64,000 bases of DNA from Meyerozyma guilliermondii (Eukaryota). The position numbers and the translations under genes are program-made. Under the pieces are notes generated by a model, which saw nothing but the letters and a program-made list of their open reading frames with translations, was not told the origin of the DNA and made no database searches. Location: NCBI GenBank assembly GCA_051546255.1, contig CP128816.1:1178001-1242000 (forward strand), written 5' to 3'. Below, piece by piece: positions 18,316 to 46,814 of this stretch (within the stretch, counting starts at the first letter, position 1; each line of letters starts with the position of its first letter).

Positions 18316-18720
18316 ATGGTTTTGTCTGAAAAACGCAACAGTGAGAGTCTGCGCTGGGGCTTTCGTGCGCTATTTATTGTCTTGGTTGTCGTTTTAACCC
18401 AATGTTTTCTCGTTTATGAATTGACTTCTACAAAAAGCTTGCACTCTTTGAGTTTTTTTTCAACTTCCACCGGCACTAATACGGTGCCAGATTTGGCTAC
18501 AGAGTTTCAGCCACAAGATGATACTTCCTCGCAATTCATTCAAGTACAACCCAGAGATAGCAAGTCGTTATTGAACAGTCCTGGAATACGAGTAGTATTG
18601 GTTATTGCTGCCATTATTGTTCTCAACATGGCGGCTATCTGCATACATCATATCTACTTGAAAATTGCTAGGTCTGGTGTCTCTTACAAGAGTATCGAAC
18701 TGAACATCGGACCTTTTTAA
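18316..18720 (+). CDS. Small hypothetical membrane protein (two hydrophobic segments)
   Basis: 134-aa ORF with two TM-like stretches around an S/T-rich loop. Confidence 0.55.
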   Translation: MVLSEKRNSESLRWGFRALFIVLVVVLTQCFLVYELTSTKSLHSLSFFSTSTGTNTVPDLATEFQPQDDTSSQFIQVQPRDSKSLLNSPGIRVVLVIAAIIVLNMAAICIHHIYLKIARSGVSYKSIELNIGPF

Positions 18721-19160
18721 CTTTAATTCTGCTCAAAAAATAAACCACATGTTGATGCTGACAATTTGCTGACACTGTTGACACTTGCTGATTTGTGGCT
18801 TGCTGATTACAAAACAGCTTCCATCTACCAAACTAGTTGAACCATTGCTAATTAATGTCATTTGCTAATTCTTCTCATTTTCTCTCACCAAACTCAATGT
18901 TCATTTTTCATACGTTTCCCATATCTTTCCAACTCAACTCTCAAATATTGTGCTTATGGACCAACTCCAACAGTTGGCTATCTTTCTTTAATCTTCCCGG
19001 TCGTCTTCACCTAATTCAGCTACTCATCCAAACACCGTTTTTTGGCCTGCAGCATCCGCATACACATCTGCCTTATCTACGCGGAAATGACCGAGTTGCC
19101 AATCCCGTACTTTTCTTTGCAAATTTTCACCAACTTGCTGCAACAACAACTAAATATACA

Positions 19161-20771
19161 ATGAAAAGTTACCCTCCACTTTCAAAGCGTTTGCTCCAAG
19201 TCTCATGCGCTATTGTATGGTGTTTACTTGCAGCTGGACCAGTATTTGGTTTTGCAGCTCTCAAACCAATCCTTATTAAAGAAGGAATTTACCATGAAAA
19301 ATGTCCACCTTCGTCTAATAAAGGTTCTGGTGAACCATGTGTGGCACAAGATCTTCTGTTGAACAAGATGTTTACACTTGCGGCTGTTTTCACTAATGTT
19401 GCTGCCCTTCCTGTTGGTTACATTTTGGATGAATATGGACCAAAAATTAGTGGTATCATTGGTTCTGGCTTAATATTTTTGGGTTCTCTTCTACTTCGTC
19501 TTGGGTCGCAAGTTGGTAGCTCCTGGTTTGATCCTTACTTGGTTGGCTACACATTTCTTGCCTTAGGAGGACCGTTCGTGTTTATCTCATGCTTCCAATT
19601 GGCCAACAGTTTCCCCAAAAACTCGGGTCTTATCTTGGCATTGTTAACCGGTGCCTTTGACTCTTCTCTGGCCCTCTTTCTTATCTACCGTTTGATATAC
19701 ACCAATATCCACAAGGTTACTCTCAACCAATTTTTCACCTACTACATGGTGGTGCCTTTGTTCATATTGGGATGTCAGCTTACAATTATGCCCTCGGATT
19801 CTTACAAGACAATGGGTACACTTGCAAAAATCGGCACTACTGGTATCGATGAAACAGGTAGACCCATTGATGAAGACCTACTTAGTGTGGAAGATAGAGA
19901 GACCGATGATGAAATTGTGCATCCTCAACCAACTGTCACTGAATCTACTGCGTTGCTTATGAGAAGAGCTTCGTTTTCTAGAAGAGAATCTACTGTTTCC
20001 AGAGCTTCGTTTGCTTCGAGAAATTCGATCAAATCAGTATACGAACAAGATGCTGAAACCAAGTTGGTTCATTCCACAGGTGGTATTTTTGGTATCATGC
20101 ATGGTTATGACATATCTGATCAGCTCAAATCACCCTGGTTCGTTTTGATGACTCTCTTTACCACCATTCAAATGTTGAGAATCAACTATTTTGTAGCTAC
20201 CATCAAGTCCCAGGAATTGTACTTGTATCACGGTGATGAGGAATTAGCAACCAAAATCAACCATTTCTTCGACTTGGCATTACCATTGGGTGGTTTGGCA
20301 TCAATTCCATTCATTGGAGTTTTATTGGACAATTTCACCACTCTTACCATCTTGTGTATCTTGACAGTGGTGTCGTTGTTCATTGGTGTTATGGGACTAT
20401 TGTCATGGATTCCTGCTACTTACGCCGGTATCCTCATGCTTGTCGTTTACAGGCCATTTTACTACACTTCTGTATCAGACTTTTGCGCTAAAGTGTTTGG
20501 CTTCGAGACGTTTGGAACCGTTTACGGTGCCATTATTTGCTTTTCTGGAATCTGTAATCTCTTGCAGCTGGCGATGGACCATGCTACCCATGAGACGTTT
20601 GGCATGAATCCCACGCCCATCAATGCCATTCTCACTGGGTTGACGGCAGTATTTGGATTGATCTTGATACAGTATGTGCGCTCCAGTGAATTGGCATTAA
20701 GGAGAAATAACTTGGAGCTCGAGGCGCAAAAGGCATCTACCAGAAGTATTCCCACGCAGATTCAAAACTGA
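19161..20771 (+). CDS. FMP42: MFS transporter, Fmp42-like
   Basis: QVSCAIVWCLLAAGPVFGFAALKPIL, QMLRINYF, FGTVYG; start placed at ATG 19161. Confidence 0.85.
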   Translation: MKSYPPLSKRLLQVSCAIVWCLLAAGPVFGFAALKPILIKEGIYHEKCPPSSNKGSGEPCVAQDLLLNKMFTLAAVFTNVAALPVGYILDEYGPKISGIIGSGLIFLGSLLLRLGSQVGSSWFDPYLVGYTFLALGGPFVFISCFQLANSFPKNSGLILALLTGAFDSSLALFLIYRLIYTNIHKVTLNQFFTYYMVVPLFILGCQLTIMPSDSYKTMGTLAKIGTTGIDETGRPIDEDLLSVEDRETDDEIVHPQPTVTESTALLMRRASFSRRESTVSRASFASRNSIKSVYEQDAETKLVHSTGGIFGIMHGYDISDQLKSPWFVLMTLFTTIQMLRINYFVATIKSQELYLYHGDEELATKINHFFDLALPLGGLASIPFIGVLLDNFTTLTILCILTVVSLFIGVMGLLSWIPATYAGILMLVVYRPFYYTSVSDFCAKVFGFETFGTVYGAIICFSGICNLLQLAMDHATHETFGMNPTPINAILTGLTAVFGLILIQYVRSSELALRRNNLELEAQKASTRSIPTQIQN

Positions 20772-20845
20772 GAAACATTACGAGTAAAAAGTGGAAAATT
20801 GGCATGGTTATATACCGCTATTAATATACATTTCGCGCTCATTAA

Positions 20846-21013
20846 TTAGGCTTCTTTTCTTCGTTTCGAACTTGCAGGAGCCGTCTCAAGCCCAGTAAGA
20901 ACTGGAATGCACTTTACCTCCACGGACTCCGGAAGTTTGATTGGCTTCTCTCGCTTAAAAGGCTGATCTCTAACGAGATCACGTTGTGGAAAATCTCCTA
21001 GTAAAGACTCCAT
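20846..21013 (-). CDS. 55-aa small ORF with a DDA1-like N-terminus (unlisted)
   Basis: Manual translation MESLLGDFPQRDLVRDQPFKREKPIKLPESVEVKCIPVLTGLETAPASSKRRKEA*; A at -3 of the ATG. Confidence 0.5.
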   Translation of the reverse strand: MESLLGDFPQRDLVRDQPFKREKPIKLPESVEVKCIPVLTGLETAPASSKRRKEA

Positions 21014-21025
21014 ACTTTCAAATAA

Positions 21026-21295
21026 TTACTTTGACTTCTTCTTTTCCTGCTTTTCGTTTTTCTCAATCTCCCTTCTGGATCCTTTGACAAGCTCAAGATG
21101 ACCCACTCGAGCAGCAATTAACTTCTCAGTCGATGCAGCTAATTGTCCTTGCTGAACTTTAGAAAGCTTAGCGGCGTGTTTTGCAGTAGCTTTCTTTGGC
21201 TTGATAATCTTAGGAGCCGCTGGTTTCGGATTTTGCCGTTTTTTGGTGACCCTAGCGCTTCCCTTGGCCCTGAGCTTGGTTACACCTTGAGCCAT
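21026..21295 (-). CDS. UPF0390/DUF2462 small basic protein (YLR363W-A/C19orf53-like)
   Basis: MAQG start, Lys-rich, TEKLIAARVGHLELVKG motif. Confidence 0.8.
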   Translation of the reverse strand: MAQGVTKLRAKGSARVTKKRQNPKPAAPKIIKPKKATAKHAAKLSKVQQGQLAASTEKLIAARVGHLELVKGSRREIEKNEKQEKKKSK

Positions 21296-21315: not shown

Positions 21316-21440
21316 TCGCGATGAGATGGCATGTCCCCCATCCCAACACCCACACTTATCTTGAGGCCGTGGGCCGCGCCCCCGTGCACCCGTAGTCAGA
21401 GTCATCAGCGACTCCGAATAATTTATTCATCTCATCGCGA
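21316..21440. promoter_or_regulatory. Divergent promoter with two inverted PAC elements and a Bas1/Gcn4 site
   Basis: GCGATGAG 21318-21325, CTCATCGC 21431-21438, GAGTCA 21399-21404 upstream of ADE6. Confidence 0.65.
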
Positions 21441-21519: not shown

Positions 21520-24500
21520 ATGAGTCTGCATCTAGTTTTGGCCGGACCCTCGGCTCTCTCTTCTTTCAGAGTGTCGAACTTGGTTCTGGAGATCGATAAG
21601 AAACTTGGCGAATCAGTCATTGAAGATGTAACTTCTTGTTACACCCACTATGTCTCAATCAAGAAGGAGTTGTCGCAGCAACAGCAAAAGCTTGTGGATG
21701 TTTTGTTGCAGTATGACTCTCCTGTAGGTACCGACGACTTGACGAAATCCTTAGTTGCACTTACCACCGATAAGACGTCATCAATTCCTTCAAACTGTTA
21801 CTTGGTTCGGATTCTTCCTCGTCCAGGAACCATCTCTCCATGGTCGTCCAAGGCTACGGATATCGCCCATATTTGTGGGTTGAAAGACCATGTTGAAAGA
21901 ATTGAAAGAGGTTTGAGTTTGCTCATCAAAGTAAAGCCTGGCTATGATTTCGAATCCAAGTTGGACTCTGAGGGCTCAATCTTGACATGTGTGTTTGATA
22001 GAATGACCCAGAAACTTTACTTGGGCACCAACTCGCCAAAACATGACGATTTGTTTGCTCACCACTACCCCAAACCTCTCGTGGATGTGGATATCATGAG
22101 CGACTCCAACAACTTGTTGAAGGCTAACAAGGAGATGGGATTGGCTTTGGACAAGGGAGAAATCGACTACTTGATTGACGCTTTTGTCAACATCATTGGA
22201 AGAAACCCAACTGACGTGGAGTTGTTCATGTTTGCCCAAGTCAACTCAGAACATTGTCGTCACAAGATTTTCAATGCCGACTGGACTATCGATGGACAAA
22301 AGAAGGACTTGTCCTTGTTCAAGATGATCAGAAACACCCACTCTGTTACTCCCCAACATACAATTTCTGCGTATTCCGATAACGCTGCCGTTTTTGAGGG
22401 CCCTGAAGGTTACCATTTCACACCAGACTTCCTCACAAAAGAATGGAAATCGATCAAAGAACAAGTACACACCTTGGTTAAGGTTGAGACTCACAACCAC
22501 CCCACGGCGGTATCTCCATTTGCCGGTGCTGCTACTGGTTCTGGTGGTGAAATCAGAGACGAAGGTGCGGTTGGACGTGGGTCCAAATCTAAAGCTGGAT
22601 TGTCTGGATTTTCCGTTTCTGATTTGAACATTCCTGGCTTTCAACAGCCATGGGAATTGCAACTCGGAAAACCTCACCACATTGCTGCCAGTTTGGACAT
22701 TATGATCGAAGCACCTATCGGTTCGGCAGCTTTCAACAACGAGTTTGGACGTCCTGCTATCAACGGTTATTTCAGAACGTTGACCACGCAAGTTAAAAAC
22801 CACGAAGGTAAAAGCGAGTACAGAGGCTTCCACAAACCAATTATGTTGGCTGGTGGTATGGGCTCAATTCGTCCTGATTTGGCATTGAAAAATAAAAAGA
22901 TAACTCCTGGTGCCAAATTGATTGTTTTGGGAGGTCCATCTATGCTTATTGGTCTTGGTGGAGGAGCCGCTTCTTCTGTCTCTTCTGGTGAAGGATCTGC
23001 TGATTTGGATTTCGCATCGGTTCAAAGAGGTAACCCAGAGATCCAGCGTAGAGCTCAACAAGTTATCGACTCATGTACCTCTTTGGGTGCTGAATCGAAT
23101 CCTATTCAGTCGATCCATGATGTTGGCGCCGGTGGTCTTTCGAATGCTTTGCCAGAACTTGTGCACGATAATGATCTCGGAGCTATTTTCGAGTTGAGAT
23201 CAATCTTATCTCTTGAGCCTGGTATGTCACCAATGGAGATTTGGTGTAACGAATCTCAGGAAAGATATGTGATGGGTGTTGCACCAGAAGACTTGGAAAC
23301 GTTTGAGCAAATTTGTAAGAGAGAACGTGCGCCATATGCTGTTGTTGGTGACGCTACGGTGGAAAAAAGATTGGTTCTCAAGGATTCCTTACTCAACTCC
23401 ACCCCTATCGACTTATCCATGTCTGTTTTGTTTGGTAAACCTCCTAAAATGTCGAGGACCTGTGTTACTCAGAATTTAAATTTGGATGCTTTCACCACTT
23501 CGGGAATTGAAGTTGACGAAGCTGTAAAGAGAATTTTGCACCTTCCATCAGTTGCTTCCAAAAACTTCTTGATCACCATTGGTGACAGATTCATCACTGG
23601 TTTGGTTGATAGAGAACAAATGGTGGGTCCATGGCAAGTGCCAGTGGCAGATGTTGGTGTCACTGCTACTTCCTTGGGAGAGACCAACTTGTCTACTGGA
23701 GATGCAATGGCTATGGGTGAAAAGCCAACATTGGCGTTGATTTCTGCTGCTGCTTCTGCCAAAATGTGCGTTGCTGAAGCCTTACTCAACGTTTTTGCAG
23801 CCGATATTCCTGCTTTGGAGCGGGTGAAATTGTCTGCCAACTGGATGTCTGCTGCTTCTCACGATGGTGAAGGTGCAAAGTTATACGAAGCTGTTCAAGC
23901 TATTGGCTTGGACTTGTGTCCTGATCTTGGAATTTCTATCCCAGTCGGAAAGGACTCCATGTCCATGAAGATGAAGTGGGATGATAAAGAAGTTACCGCA
24001 CCATTGGCATTGACAATCACTGCCTTTGCTCCTTCTCAGAATACCTCAAACACATGGACCCCAGTGTTACAGCACGAAGACGATACCGTATTGGTGTTAG
24101 TGGACTTGTCCGCGGGACATGAAAAGGCTTTAGGAGGTTCGGCGTTGGCTCAAGTGTACAAACAAGTTGGAAACACTTGTCCAACTGTGCACTCTAATAG
24201 TGAATTGAAGAGCTTTTTGACTTCTTTAATTGCTTTGCATGCGTCTGAAAAGGTGTTGGCATACCATGATGTTTCTGAAGGTGGATTACTCACGACCGTT
24301 TTGGAAATGTGTTTTGCAGGTCGTTGTGGTGTTTCTCTCGACATAACCAGTCAAGCAGACGCCTTGACGGCATTGTTTAACGAGGAACTTGGAGCAGTTT
24401 TCCAAATACGCTCTAACGACTATGATGATTTTGTGTCTATCTTTGAGAAGTCCGGCTTGTCAAAGAGCTTTATCTCCAAAATTGGTGTCCCATCATTTTC

Positions 24501-25530
24501 CAGTCAGGAAGTAAAGGTTGTCGTCAATGAGTCCAAGGTGTACGAGAGCACTAGAGGTGAACTTCAAAGTATGTGGGCAGAAACTTCTTATCAAATCCAA
24601 AAGTTGAGAGACAACCCTGCAACTACAGAACAAGAATTCCAAGCCATCGGTGATGATAAAGACCCTGGATTGAGTTACCAATTGACTTATAGTCCTGGAG
24701 ACGATCTTGCCATTTCCACCTTAACTTCTAAGCACAAGGTTGCCATTTTGAGAGACCAAGGTGTTAACTCACAACAGGAAATGGCATGGTGTTTCCAACA
24801 AGCTGGATTCACTGTGGTGGATGTTCACATGTCGGATATTTTGACTGGCAAGGTCACGTTGAAAGACTTTGTAGGTCTTGCCGCTTGTGGTGGATTCTCA
24901 TACGGTGATGTCTTGGGAGCTGGTGCTGGATGGGCCAAATCTGTTCTTTTCAACGACAGAGCTCGTAAGGAATTCGAACACTTTTTCAAAGAAAGAAACG
25001 ATACCTTTGCCTTTGGTGCATGTAATGGATGTCAATTCTTTAGCAGAGTTGCCGAATTGATACCAGGAACTGAAGAATGGCCAACGTTCGAGCGCAATTT
25101 GTCCGAGCAATATGAGGCAAGATTTGTCATGGTTGAAGTTACTGATGACTCCAGCGACTCTATCTTTTTGAAGGGCATGAAGGGCTCCAAGATGCCTATT
25201 GCCGTGGCTCATGGTGAAGGGCGTGCTACTTTTAAGACTCAAGAGACGAAACAACAATTCACTAAAGATGGTCTTACTGCCGTCAGATATGTTGATAACT
25301 ATGGTCATGCCACCGAGACGTATCCATTCAACCCTAATGGATCACCAGATGGTATTGCCGGAATCAGTTCGAAAAATGGTAGGGTTTTGGCCATGATGCC
25401 TCACCCAGAAAGAGTTTGTAGATTAGAGTCAAACTCTTGGTACCCTACCGAAAAGCGTGAAGAATGGAACAACTATGGACCATGGATCAGGCTATTCAGA
25501 AACGCCAGAAAATGGGTGGAATCCCAATAG
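21520..25530 (+). CDS. ADE6: Phosphoribosylformylglycinamidine synthase
   Basis: NSEHCRHKIF, KVETHNHPTA, GACNGCQ, MMPHPER. Confidence 0.98.
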   Translation: MSLHLVLAGPSALSSFRVSNLVLEIDKKLGESVIEDVTSCYTHYVSIKKELSQQQQKLVDVLLQYDSPVGTDDLTKSLVALTTDKTSSIPSNCYLVRILPRPGTISPWSSKATDIAHICGLKDHVERIERGLSLLIKVKPGYDFESKLDSEGSILTCVFDRMTQKLYLGTNSPKHDDLFAHHYPKPLVDVDIMSDSNNLLKANKEMGLALDKGEIDYLIDAFVNIIGRNPTDVELFMFAQVNSEHCRHKIFNADWTIDGQKKDLSLFKMIRNTHSVTPQHTISAYSDNAAVFEGPEGYHFTPDFLTKEWKSIKEQVHTLVKVETHNHPTAVSPFAGAATGSGGEIRDEGAVGRGSKSKAGLSGFSVSDLNIPGFQQPWELQLGKPHHIAASLDIMIEAPIGSAAFNNEFGRPAINGYFRTLTTQVKNHEGKSEYRGFHKPIMLAGGMGSIRPDLALKNKKITPGAKLIVLGGPSMLIGLGGGAASSVSSGEGSADLDFASVQRGNPEIQRRAQQVIDSCTSLGAESNPIQSIHDVGAGGLSNALPELVHDNDLGAIFELRSILSLEPGMSPMEIWCNESQERYVMGVAPEDLETFEQICKRERAPYAVVGDATVEKRLVLKDSLLNSTPIDLSMSVLFGKPPKMSRTCVTQNLNLDAFTTSGIEVDEAVKRILHLPSVASKNFLITIGDRFITGLVDREQMVGPWQVPVADVGVTATSLGETNLSTGDAMAMGEKPTLALISAAASAKMCVAEALLNVFAADIPALERVKLSANWMSAASHDGEGAKLYEAVQAIGLDLCPDLGISIPVGKDSMSMKMKWDDKEVTAPLALTITAFAPSQNTSNTWTPVLQHEDDTVLVLVDLSAGHEKALGGSALAQVYKQVGNTCPTVHSNSELKSFLTSLIALHASEKVLAYHDVSEGGLLTTVLEMCFAGRCGVSLDITSQADALTALFNEELGAVFQIRSNDYDDFVSIFEKSGLSKSFISKIGVPSFSSQEVKVVVNESKVYESTRGELQSMWAETSYQIQKLRDNPATTEQEFQAIGDDKDPGLSYQLTYSPGDDLAISTLTSKHKVAILRDQGVNSQQEMAWCFQQAGFTVVDVHMSDILTGKVTLKDFVGLAACGGFSYGDVLGAGAGWAKSVLFNDRARKEFEHFFKERNDTFAFGACNGCQFFSRVAELIPGTEEWPTFERNLSEQYEARFVMVEVTDDSSDSIFLKGMKGSKMPIAVAHGEGRATFKTQETKQQFTKDGLTAVRYVDNYGHATETYPFNPNGSPDGIAGISSKNGRVLAMMPHPERVCRLESNSWYPTEKREEWNNYGPWIRLFRNARKWVESQ

Positions 25531-45371: not shown

Positions 45372-46814
45372 CTACATTTGTCTGCCTTTCCACACCTCGT
45401 CGTAACTACTGGTTCCTTTAGTTTCAGGCACATATTTCTTCACAAACAAAAATGCCACCACACACATGAACGTAAAGATAAAGTATACTCCTCCACCGAT
45501 CCACGAACTTTTCAACAATGGGAACAAAAATCCAACCACAAAAGTAGCAAGCCAATTCATCGTCATACCCCAGCTCTGCGCCAGCGCCTTTGCTGTAGGT
45601 TGTGTCACTTCACTAACAATGAGAAATGGAATTGGTCCTAATCCAAGGGCAAAGAACGTAATGTACGCAAAAGTTCCCACGATAGACAAGACAGAATTGG
45701 TTCCAATAATACCAAAACCCATCAATACCGTCAGTACAGCCATGGCACTTACCGACGTTAACAACAACGGTTTGCGGCCCAAACGATCCACCAAAGGAGC
45801 AGCAATAAACGTCACCACCACATTGACCACTGAAATGAGACAATTGATCATAATGGCATAATTGGGAAAGATAGATACAAGTACGGACACTCCATAGAAA
45901 ATGATGGAGTTTATACCACAAAATTGCTGAAGAACCAAGATCCCCGTACCAACAACTTTGGAATTGTTGTACTCTCTGCTGGTAAGGTAGTTTTTCAATG
46001 GAACTTGAGTCAGTGACTGTACTGAATTTTCCAGTTCTGTCAATGGTACTGCCTCGTCTTCGTCACCATTTGCACCGGGCAATCTCCAGCTCTTCACCTC
46101 ATTTCGAGCCAGTGTATAGTCGCCGCCACGAAGTTTGTGGATGATTGTGAACGCTTCGTTGGTATGACCATTATTTGCAAGCCACATGGGCGATTCGTCA
46201 ATGATCAAAAGAACAGCCACAAAATCCACTAAACCGACAACAGAGCCCATAAGTAACAACTTTCGCCATTGGTTATTGTCACACCATGCCAACGCCAACA
46301 CCTGGGTGAACAAAATGCCCAAATTGACCGATGCCTGGTTCATTGCTCCCATTGCACCTTTGTAGTTTGTTGGAGCAATTTCGTTGATAAAGATTGATGT
46401 GATGACCAATGCCGCGCCAGCACCAAGCCCAGCAATAAACCGACCCAAAACAATGGTCCAGTAGCCATTGGCGGTTCCATTCATAGTTGAGCCAATGAGA
46501 TAGAGAAGACAATGAACCAAGGATGCTCGCTTTCGACCATATTTATCGGAAACCGATCCAATATAAAGTGAACCTACCAAACCCCCAATGCCAAATATCG
46601 ATGTGACCATACCAACTTGCAGAGTTGTTAATGGAATACATCTGGAAAACCCCCTACTTCCAAACCAAGATTCTTCATATGGAATTCGACCAGGTTTTGA
46701 AACTTCGCACGAAAGAATTGACTCAGGCAGGTTCAATTCGGCCATATGGTACCCAAACTGGAACGATCCGAGACATATCACCGATATGGTGGCTACAAGC
46801 TTCGAAGTGATCAT
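45372..46814 (-). CDS. Sugar-porter MFS protein (Vps73/YBR241C family)
   Basis: LGSFQFGYHMAELN, DKYGRK, QQFCGINSIIFY, DRLGRK, PETKG. Confidence 0.88.
   Translation of the reverse strand: MITSKLVATISVICLGSFQFGYHMAELNLPESILSCEVSKPGRIPYEESWFGSRGFSRCIPLTTLQVGMVTSIFGIGGLVGSLYIGSVSDKYGRKRASLVHCLLYLIGSTMNGTANGYWTIVLGRFIAGLGAGAALVITSIFINEIAPTNYKGAMGAMNQASVNLGILFTQVLALAWCDNNQWRKLLLMGSVVGLVDFVAVLLIIDESPMWLANNGHTNEAFTIIHKLRGGDYTLARNEVKSWRLPGANGDEDEAVPLTELENSVQSLTQVPLKNYLTSREYNNSKVVGTGILVLQQFCGINSIIFYGVSVLVSIFPNYAIMINCLISVVNVVVTFIAAPLVDRLGRKPLLLTSVSAMAVLTVLMGFGIIGTNSVLSIVGTFAYITFFALGLGPIPFLIVSEVTQPTAKALAQSWGMTMNWLATFVVGFLFPLLKSSWIGGGVYFIFTFMCVVAFLFVKKYVPETKGTSSYDEVWKGRQM

Follow-up and report, generated by a model that had tools for sequence, protein, structure and literature searches.

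A conserved microprotein gene held against the DUF2462 stop codon of CUG-clade yeasts: a probable natural bicistron

Does a small open reading frame (ORF) that opens just behind another gene's stop codon in the yeast Meyerozyma guilliermondii encode a protein, and how would ribosomes reach it? The locus lies in a 64,000-nt stretch of contig CP128816.1 (positions 1,178,001 to 1,242,000, forward strand), hereafter the window, whose own numbering is used below. On the minus strand, ORF1, a gene of the DUF2462/UPF0390 family, runs from 21295 to its TAA at 21026 and is followed after 12 nt by ORF2 (21013 to 20846) in the same frame. An earlier note, made from the letters alone, had described this geometry of UPF0390 stop, 12-nt spacer, ATG at 21013 and in-frame 55-codon ORF, and it was confirmed on the sequence. 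Because the host is a Meyerozyma-type member of the CUG clade, we translated with the CUG=Ser code. The features are as follows:

21026..21295, minus strand: ORF1, DUF2462/UPF0390 basic protein of 89 aa, ATG at 21295, TAA at 21028-21026
21014..21025, minus strand: ATG-free 12-nt spacer from stop to start, TTA TTT GAA AGT, of unconserved length and frame
20846..21013, minus strand: ORF2, conserved microprotein gene of 55 codons with its own ATG at 21013

Judged by its conservation, ORF2 is a real gene, mostly unannotated, that starts at its own AUG. It appears to be held against the DUF2462 stop codon across CUG-clade yeasts, and the pair is probably a natural bicistron. The arrangement of the sequence makes it reasonably likely that the two ORFs share one mRNA, which is unusual for yeast. 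The explanation that we tentatively favour is a PAC-regulated shared mRNA on which ORF2 is reached by termination and reinitiation.

Conservation of ORF2 and of its position

Of 79 genes in this genome, 4 show an ATG between −4 and +15 of the stop that opens at least 40 aa, and at least two of these look like artefacts of ORF picking. The single-genome observation is thus not decisive, and the case for ORF2 rests on its conservation. A search with ORF2 as a single sequence returned three proteins from three candidates, namely the window protein and two 55-aa relatives at 87% and 84%. When a profile of those three was run against 1.84 billion representatives, it matched itself, P0090 (56 aa, 48%, E 2.8e-9) and P0089; the latter was dropped as a relative, as its match was driven by repeats.

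Of 72 DUF2462 matches, 5 had a C-terminal tail similar to the latter half of ORF2. Four ORF2s and four such tails were combined into a profile, which found 18 proteins at E ≤10 among 575 candidates, of which 14 (59-95 aa) were new. Members of the resulting family are 55-96 aa long and carry two short conserved motifs, a linker of variable length and a basic tail. The N-terminal motif, a hydrophobic pair followed by G/N/D-F/I-P, follows the ORF2 Met at an almost constant distance, and the C-terminal motif is L/I-P-E-L-T-A-L-D-P-D; window ORF2 has L-L-G-D-F-P, C-I-P-x-L-T-G-L and a basic C-terminal tail. Where a species is named, the members are annotated as hypothetical proteins; they come from Candidozyma auris, Debaryomyces tyrocola, Metschnikowia pulcherrima and Sungouiella intermedia.

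To avoid circularity, we also built a profile from only the four syntenic ORF2s described below. Out of 1885 six-frame segments it placed window ORF2 first, at E 0.011 with the runner-up at E 1, and it gave 13 of the 14 independently found proteins E <0.001. Other scores pull the other way: Meyerozyma ORF2 is divergent, at 8-13 bits; a profile of 18 non-Meyerozyma members ranked it first, yet only at E 1.0; and a pairwise BLAST comparison with the ORF2 of locus L008 was not significant (E 0.049). Owing to this divergence, the homology of Meyerozyma ORF2 to the distant members rests on position, motif order and weak scores together.

We scanned metagenome contigs with a DUF2462 profile and obtained 12 loci in 7 species-level groups. 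The block ADE6-DUF2462-MFS (major facilitator superfamily) was kept in 5 of the 7 groups, and ORF2 was present in 4 of those 5. With the window included, ORF2 stands behind DUF2462 in the order ADE6-DUF2462-ORF2-MFS in five of six syntenic groups and has been lost in one. The ORF2-keeping loci, with the offset from ORF1 stop to ORF2 start, are these:

Window (Meyerozyma): offset +12, in frame, ORF2 of 55 aa
L002: offset −4, ATGA overlap, ORF2 of 67 aa; ORF1 identical to C. parapsilosis CPAR2_204060
L008/L009: offset −4, ATGA overlap, ORF2 of 96 aa
L010: offset +2, ORF2 of 83 aa, identical to a S. intermedia protein
L003/L004/L011: offset +57, two in-frame stops in the spacer, ORF2 of 89-91 aa

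The ORF1 of L003 is identical to C. albicans CR_04750W, and the three C. albicans copies differ only by one substitution and one 6-nt repeat indel. Offsets were 12 nt or less in four of the five loci, two of them as ATGA; the frame differed, three of five being out of frame, and the ORF1 stop codon was TAA or TGA depending on the locus. The adjacency that the earlier note proposed to look for was therefore found, in five of six syntenic groups, whereas the spacer length was not conserved (−4, −4, +2, +12, +57). The in-frame 12-nt spacer that it had stressed is real in Meyerozyma, and it is incidental, because the frame is not conserved across the five loci.

Unlike the syntenic pairs, the non-syntenic yeast DUF2462 loci L012 and L013 showed no ORF2 in a profile check. 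A first metagenome scan and the viral and prokaryote collections yielded no further loci. Among database proteins, those for ORF1 and ORF2 have accession numbers that follow one another in one C. auris assembly, and several other ORF1 and ORF2 proteins have a longest contig of the same size (63993, 46215, 9120, 12504), an indirect sign of linkage.

In the remaining syntenic group (L005:1239-1708, also L006 and L007) the ATGA junction is kept and opens four codons only, with no trace of the ORF2 profile; TACATA lies 143 nt past the ORF1 stop of L005. These three loci represent a natural ORF2-loss lineage. One DUF2462 protein labelled Chlamydia trachomatis (P0129, CQB87448.1) falls within the C. 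albicans cluster and is likely a case of contamination or mislabelling.

Could ORF2 nevertheless be a non-functional frame in a 3′ untranslated region? The chance frames counted above, the non-significant comparison with L008 and the loss in one lineage lean that way. The earlier note had named absence of conservation as what would speak against the 55-aa frame. Instead, same-length homologues at 84-87%, the 56-aa one at 48% and the first rank under the syntenic-only profile, which also recovered 13 of 14 independent proteins, make this reading highly improbable.

Searches for a known counterpart of ORF2 gave little. Its own genome holds no paralogue (a single match in the genome search), the window protein has no Pfam match, and a scan of 8 and 17 family members gave best E of 0.013 and 0.023, both to unrelated families. 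The best E in a PDB sequence search was 0.74. The ESM Atlas gave no usable match for two members, which speaks neither for absence nor for novelty. AlphaFold2 (22 sequences) predicted an extended chain with no globular fold (predicted template-modelling score, pTM, 0.18), from which we infer a disordered linear-motif protein; its basic tail might serve as a signal for nuclear localisation. Prediction of an ORF1-ORF2 complex scored 0.00, which is no answer and counts neither way.

From promoter to second start codon

If the pair is a bicistron, its promoter would lie in the intergenic region that ORF1 shares with the divergent ADE6-type gene. Two elements are found there:

21318..21325, plus strand: proximal PAC element, GCGATGAG match, 22 nt ahead of the ORF1 AUG
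21431..21438, minus strand: distal PAC element, GCGATGAG match, in the divergent ORF1/ADE6 intergenic region

These are the only two matches to GCGATGAG in the window (1.36 expected overall), and both fall within the 224-nt ORF1/ADE6 intergenic stretch, which bears out the PAC-containing promoter named in the earlier note. Genome-wide, GCGATGAGM had 323 matches versus 55 for a reversed control. The idea that PAC sits abnormally near the ORF1 AUG was rejected, since 11 of 20 scored PAC loci, taken from the first 30 of the 323 matches, lie 54 nt or less from an ATG. PAC elements very near start codons are thus a feature of this genome (L014-L043, G000 contig C1), which suggests that PAC regulon genes have very short leaders or carry PAC at the start site. 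The two elements at 21318-21438 are also arranged as an inverted pair of 11 bp (GCGATGAGATG), in a promoter that is shared with the ADE6-type gene.

ORF1 itself matches PF09495 at E 1e-17 (65.1 bits, curated cut-off 23; Pfam scan). We take human C19orf53/L10K/Hero11 and S. cerevisiae YLR363W-A to be members of the same DUF2462/UPF0390 (PF09495) family. L10K, synonymous with C19orf53/Hero11 (10.1101/2022.11.15.516569), is reported to act as a late pre-60S assembly factor (bioRxiv 10.1101/2023.03.14.532478), and this role fits the PAC promoter at ORF1. PDB sequence searches with ORF1 and with the yeast profile did not retrieve L10K, so the DUF2462-L10K link was not reproduced by sequence. A role for ORF2 in ribosome biogenesis, guessed from the PAC promoter and that presumed link, is a possibility that we hold tentatively.

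The favoured explanation runs as follows. One mRNA would extend from the ORF1/ADE6 intergenic PAC promoter through ORF1 and ORF2 and end past ORF2. ORF1 would be translated normally, and some of the ribosomes that terminate at its stop would remain bound to the message and initiate again at the adjoining ORF2 AUG, which overlaps the stop as ATGA in some species and lies 2-57 nt downstream in others. The result would be a distinct protein, small, disordered and made in lower amounts, that carries two linear motifs and a basic tail. It would probably reside in the nucleus and be regulated together with ribosome-biogenesis genes.

Two observations fit reinitiation: the offsets of 12 nt or less in four of five loci, and an ORF1 AUG whose context (−3 A, +4 G) is strong in all five. 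An AUGA overlap or close stop-start spacing is described as a signature of coupled termination-reinitiation, fungal viruses included, and cellular cases can be without upstream cis elements (PMC5972666). Yeast is able to reinitiate after a full ORF (PMC11952965). The ORF1-ORF2 gap (12 nt here, −4 to +57 in relatives) is also far below the ordinary tandem gaps of the window, which span 30-550 nt between same-strand ORFs of at least 120 aa (16 pairs; the gap spanning the ORF1-ORF2 locus excluded).

The 3′ end can be read in the same way. TAYRTA is an efficiency-like element of yeast mRNA 3′ ends, and none occurs from the ORF1 stop to the end of ORF2 in any of the five loci, while the first lies 15-32 nt past ORF2 in three. 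In the window it is this element:

20809..20814, minus strand: TATATA, the first TAYRTA 3′ of ORF1, 32 nt past the ORF2 stop

Several points weigh against a shared mRNA with reinitiation. The TAYRTA argument is weak, because coding sequence seldom has such an element (16 of 263 coding windows) and, of 39 ordinary downstream regions, no more than 14 contain one. Upstream of the junction we found no conserved RNA structure (five sequences, pseudoknot-free model; consensus −2.5 kcal/mol, with an unfavourable covariation term), and there was no Rfam match; by eye in alignment A6, UGGGA, the motif of the termination upstream ribosome-binding site (TURBS), was likewise absent upstream of the junctions. 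Spacing suited to coupled reinitiation (overlap or up to about 14 nt) holds in four of five loci, and the 57-nt C. albicans spacer exceeds the usual 14 nt (PMC5972666). According to the same source, reinitiation past an 89-codon ORF is considered rare. ATGA easily arises from a Lys codon AAA before TGA, and it persists in the ORF2-loss lineage. Finally, out-of-frame ATGs in ORF1 numbered 0 against 2.6 expected over the five loci (P 0.02; few codons, related sequences), which would suit scanning through ORF1.

Such scanning is the basis of a possible, though rather doubtful, alternative, in which some 40S subunits miss the ORF1 AUG because of a short leader and scan through an AUG-poor ORF1 to the ORF2 AUG on the same mRNA. 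Window ORF1 has no internal ATG in any frame, and in both the window and L010 no ATG lies between the two starts; the AUG-free 57-nt C. albicans spacer is tolerated by this route, and the position of PAC, just 22 nt ahead of the ORF1 AUG, points to a short leader. Leaky scanning is also the route favoured for algal bicistrons (PMC7896298). However, the weak upstream AUG context expected of leaky scanning was absent from all five loci, and the strong context therefore disfavours context-driven leakage. One in-frame AUG of weak context intervenes in three of the five loci, as does an in-frame internal Met in 18 of 54 DUF2462 homologues. The ATG deficit comes from few codons and relatives and could be accounted for by codon bias, PAC 12-60 nt from an ATG is common in the genome, and leaky scanning leaves the constant closeness of stop and start unexplained.

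Comparably unlikely is that ORF2 has its own monocistronic mRNA, starting inside ORF1 at a downstream start site or internal promoter, with the spacing a result of genome compaction. The genome is compact, with same-strand gaps down to 30 nt; both the ORF1 3′ end and the 57-nt C. albicans spacer are A-rich and look like a yeast leader; the ORF2 AUG context is good in all five loci (purine at −3; in the window −3 is A and +4 is G); and stand-alone ORF2 gene models exist in the four named species. On the other hand, the spacer never exceeds 57 nt in the five loci, no PAC-type element lies inside window ORF1, and ORF1 transcripts would still be forced to overlap ORF2.

Splicing of ORF1 to the 3′ half of ORF2, yielding one longer protein, would follow the database models of four species in which DUF2462 is joined to the C-terminal half of ORF2 (P0025, P0036/P0037/P0157, P0040, P0054). 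We regard it as very unlikely because the fused models skip the conserved ORF2 N-terminal motif and C. auris has two differing junctions alongside separate, consecutively numbered ORF1 and ORF2 proteins. The aligned junctions share no common splice signal by eye, and only the 5 of 72 DUF2462 matches have such a tail. The fused models P0025, P0036, P0037, P0040, P0054 and P0157, from Spathaspora, Scheffersomyces and Candidozyma, are probably annotation artefacts.

Stop-codon readthrough to a 149-aa ORF1-ORF2 fusion, which the in-frame arrangement of the window would allow and the earlier note had already ranked low, is refuted as a conserved mechanism and has practically no chance, because ORF1 and ORF2 lie in different frames at three of five loci and the other in-frame case (+57) has two stops in its spacer, while the ORF1 stop codon itself alternates between TAA and TGA.

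Neighbouring genes in the window

The two genes that flank the pair are conserved neighbours:

18855..20771, plus strand: convergent MFS transporter gene, its stop 74 nt from the ORF2 stop
21520..25530, plus strand: divergent gene, ADE6-type FGAM synthase, named from recognition of its sequence

The name of the latter is presumptive, as it was given by recognising the sequence and not by a family scan. In the MFS frame, 102 codons are open upstream of the Met at 19161; this Met looks like the homologues' start and is probably the true one. Between RPB8 and the MFS gene, 18316-18720 (plus strand) encodes a 134-aa protein with two hydrophobic stretches and a weak Pfam match to TRIQK (E 0.004). 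Elsewhere, an 80-codon ATG frame begins 15 nt past the stop of a transporter gene (45372-46814, minus strand), towards the next gene, probably by chance.

Meaning and comparison with known systems

In the literature searched, locus tags included and with most subscription papers outside its coverage, we found no paper on the ORF1-ORF2 pair or on ORF2. In the text and table S1 of the CGOB paper (PMC3649674), the word 'cistronic' is absent and no 168-bp M. guilliermondii gene appears, a test by size and label only; seven rows of that table for neighbouring orf19.631x orthologues concern other genes. Whatever the mechanism, ORF2 would add a microprotein family without a library match, and it has been missed by, or wrongly fused to DUF2462 in, the gene models of several species, human pathogens included. 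The pair, kept across the CUG clade with junction variants of −4, +2, +12 and +57, could serve as a ready-made yeast test set for reinitiation versus leaky scanning, and the junction as a possible short native co-expression linker.

A bolder version, which we consider unlikely, is that CUG-clade yeasts, with C. albicans, C. parapsilosis and C. auris among them, have a natural bicistron on their chromosomes in which virus-like stop-start reinitiation behind a ribosome-assembly factor would yield an undescribed microprotein whose dose reports ribosome-recycling efficiency; it was perhaps born from the ORF1 3′ untranslated region and may work in the nucleolar pathway of that factor.

The general view is that efficient expression of bicistronic protein-coding mRNAs does not occur in budding yeasts (PMC11952965). 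In coupled stop-start systems (victorivirus AUGA, hypovirus UAAUG, calicivirus TURBS, and the cellular CASQ2 and GAD), which are among the closest parallels, the second ORF likewise begins where a full-length first ORF stops or a few nt away (PMC5972666), and two of the five yeast loci share the ATGA overlap. Unlike those systems, the yeast pair is chromosomal, its junction varies from −4 to +57 and has no conserved upstream structure, and its coupling is putative. Green-algal bicistronic mRNAs resemble it in their small, close, co-linear ORFs, random relative frame and conserved pairs, whereas their median spacers of 212-260 nt are far longer than those in yeast (PMC7896298); in contrast to the algal cases, the upstream AUG context in yeast is strong, and the yeast pair is known from sequence alone. 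Downstream ORFs of Saccharomyces also lie in the 3′ region of an mRNA and encode charged microproteins, and they are described as having a median of 14-18 aa, weakly translated and rarely conserved (bioRxiv 10.64898/2026.03.05.709866). ORF2 differs from them in its length of 55-96 aa and in its conservation, which extends from Meyerozyma to Candida, Debaryomyces, Metschnikowia and Candidozyma.
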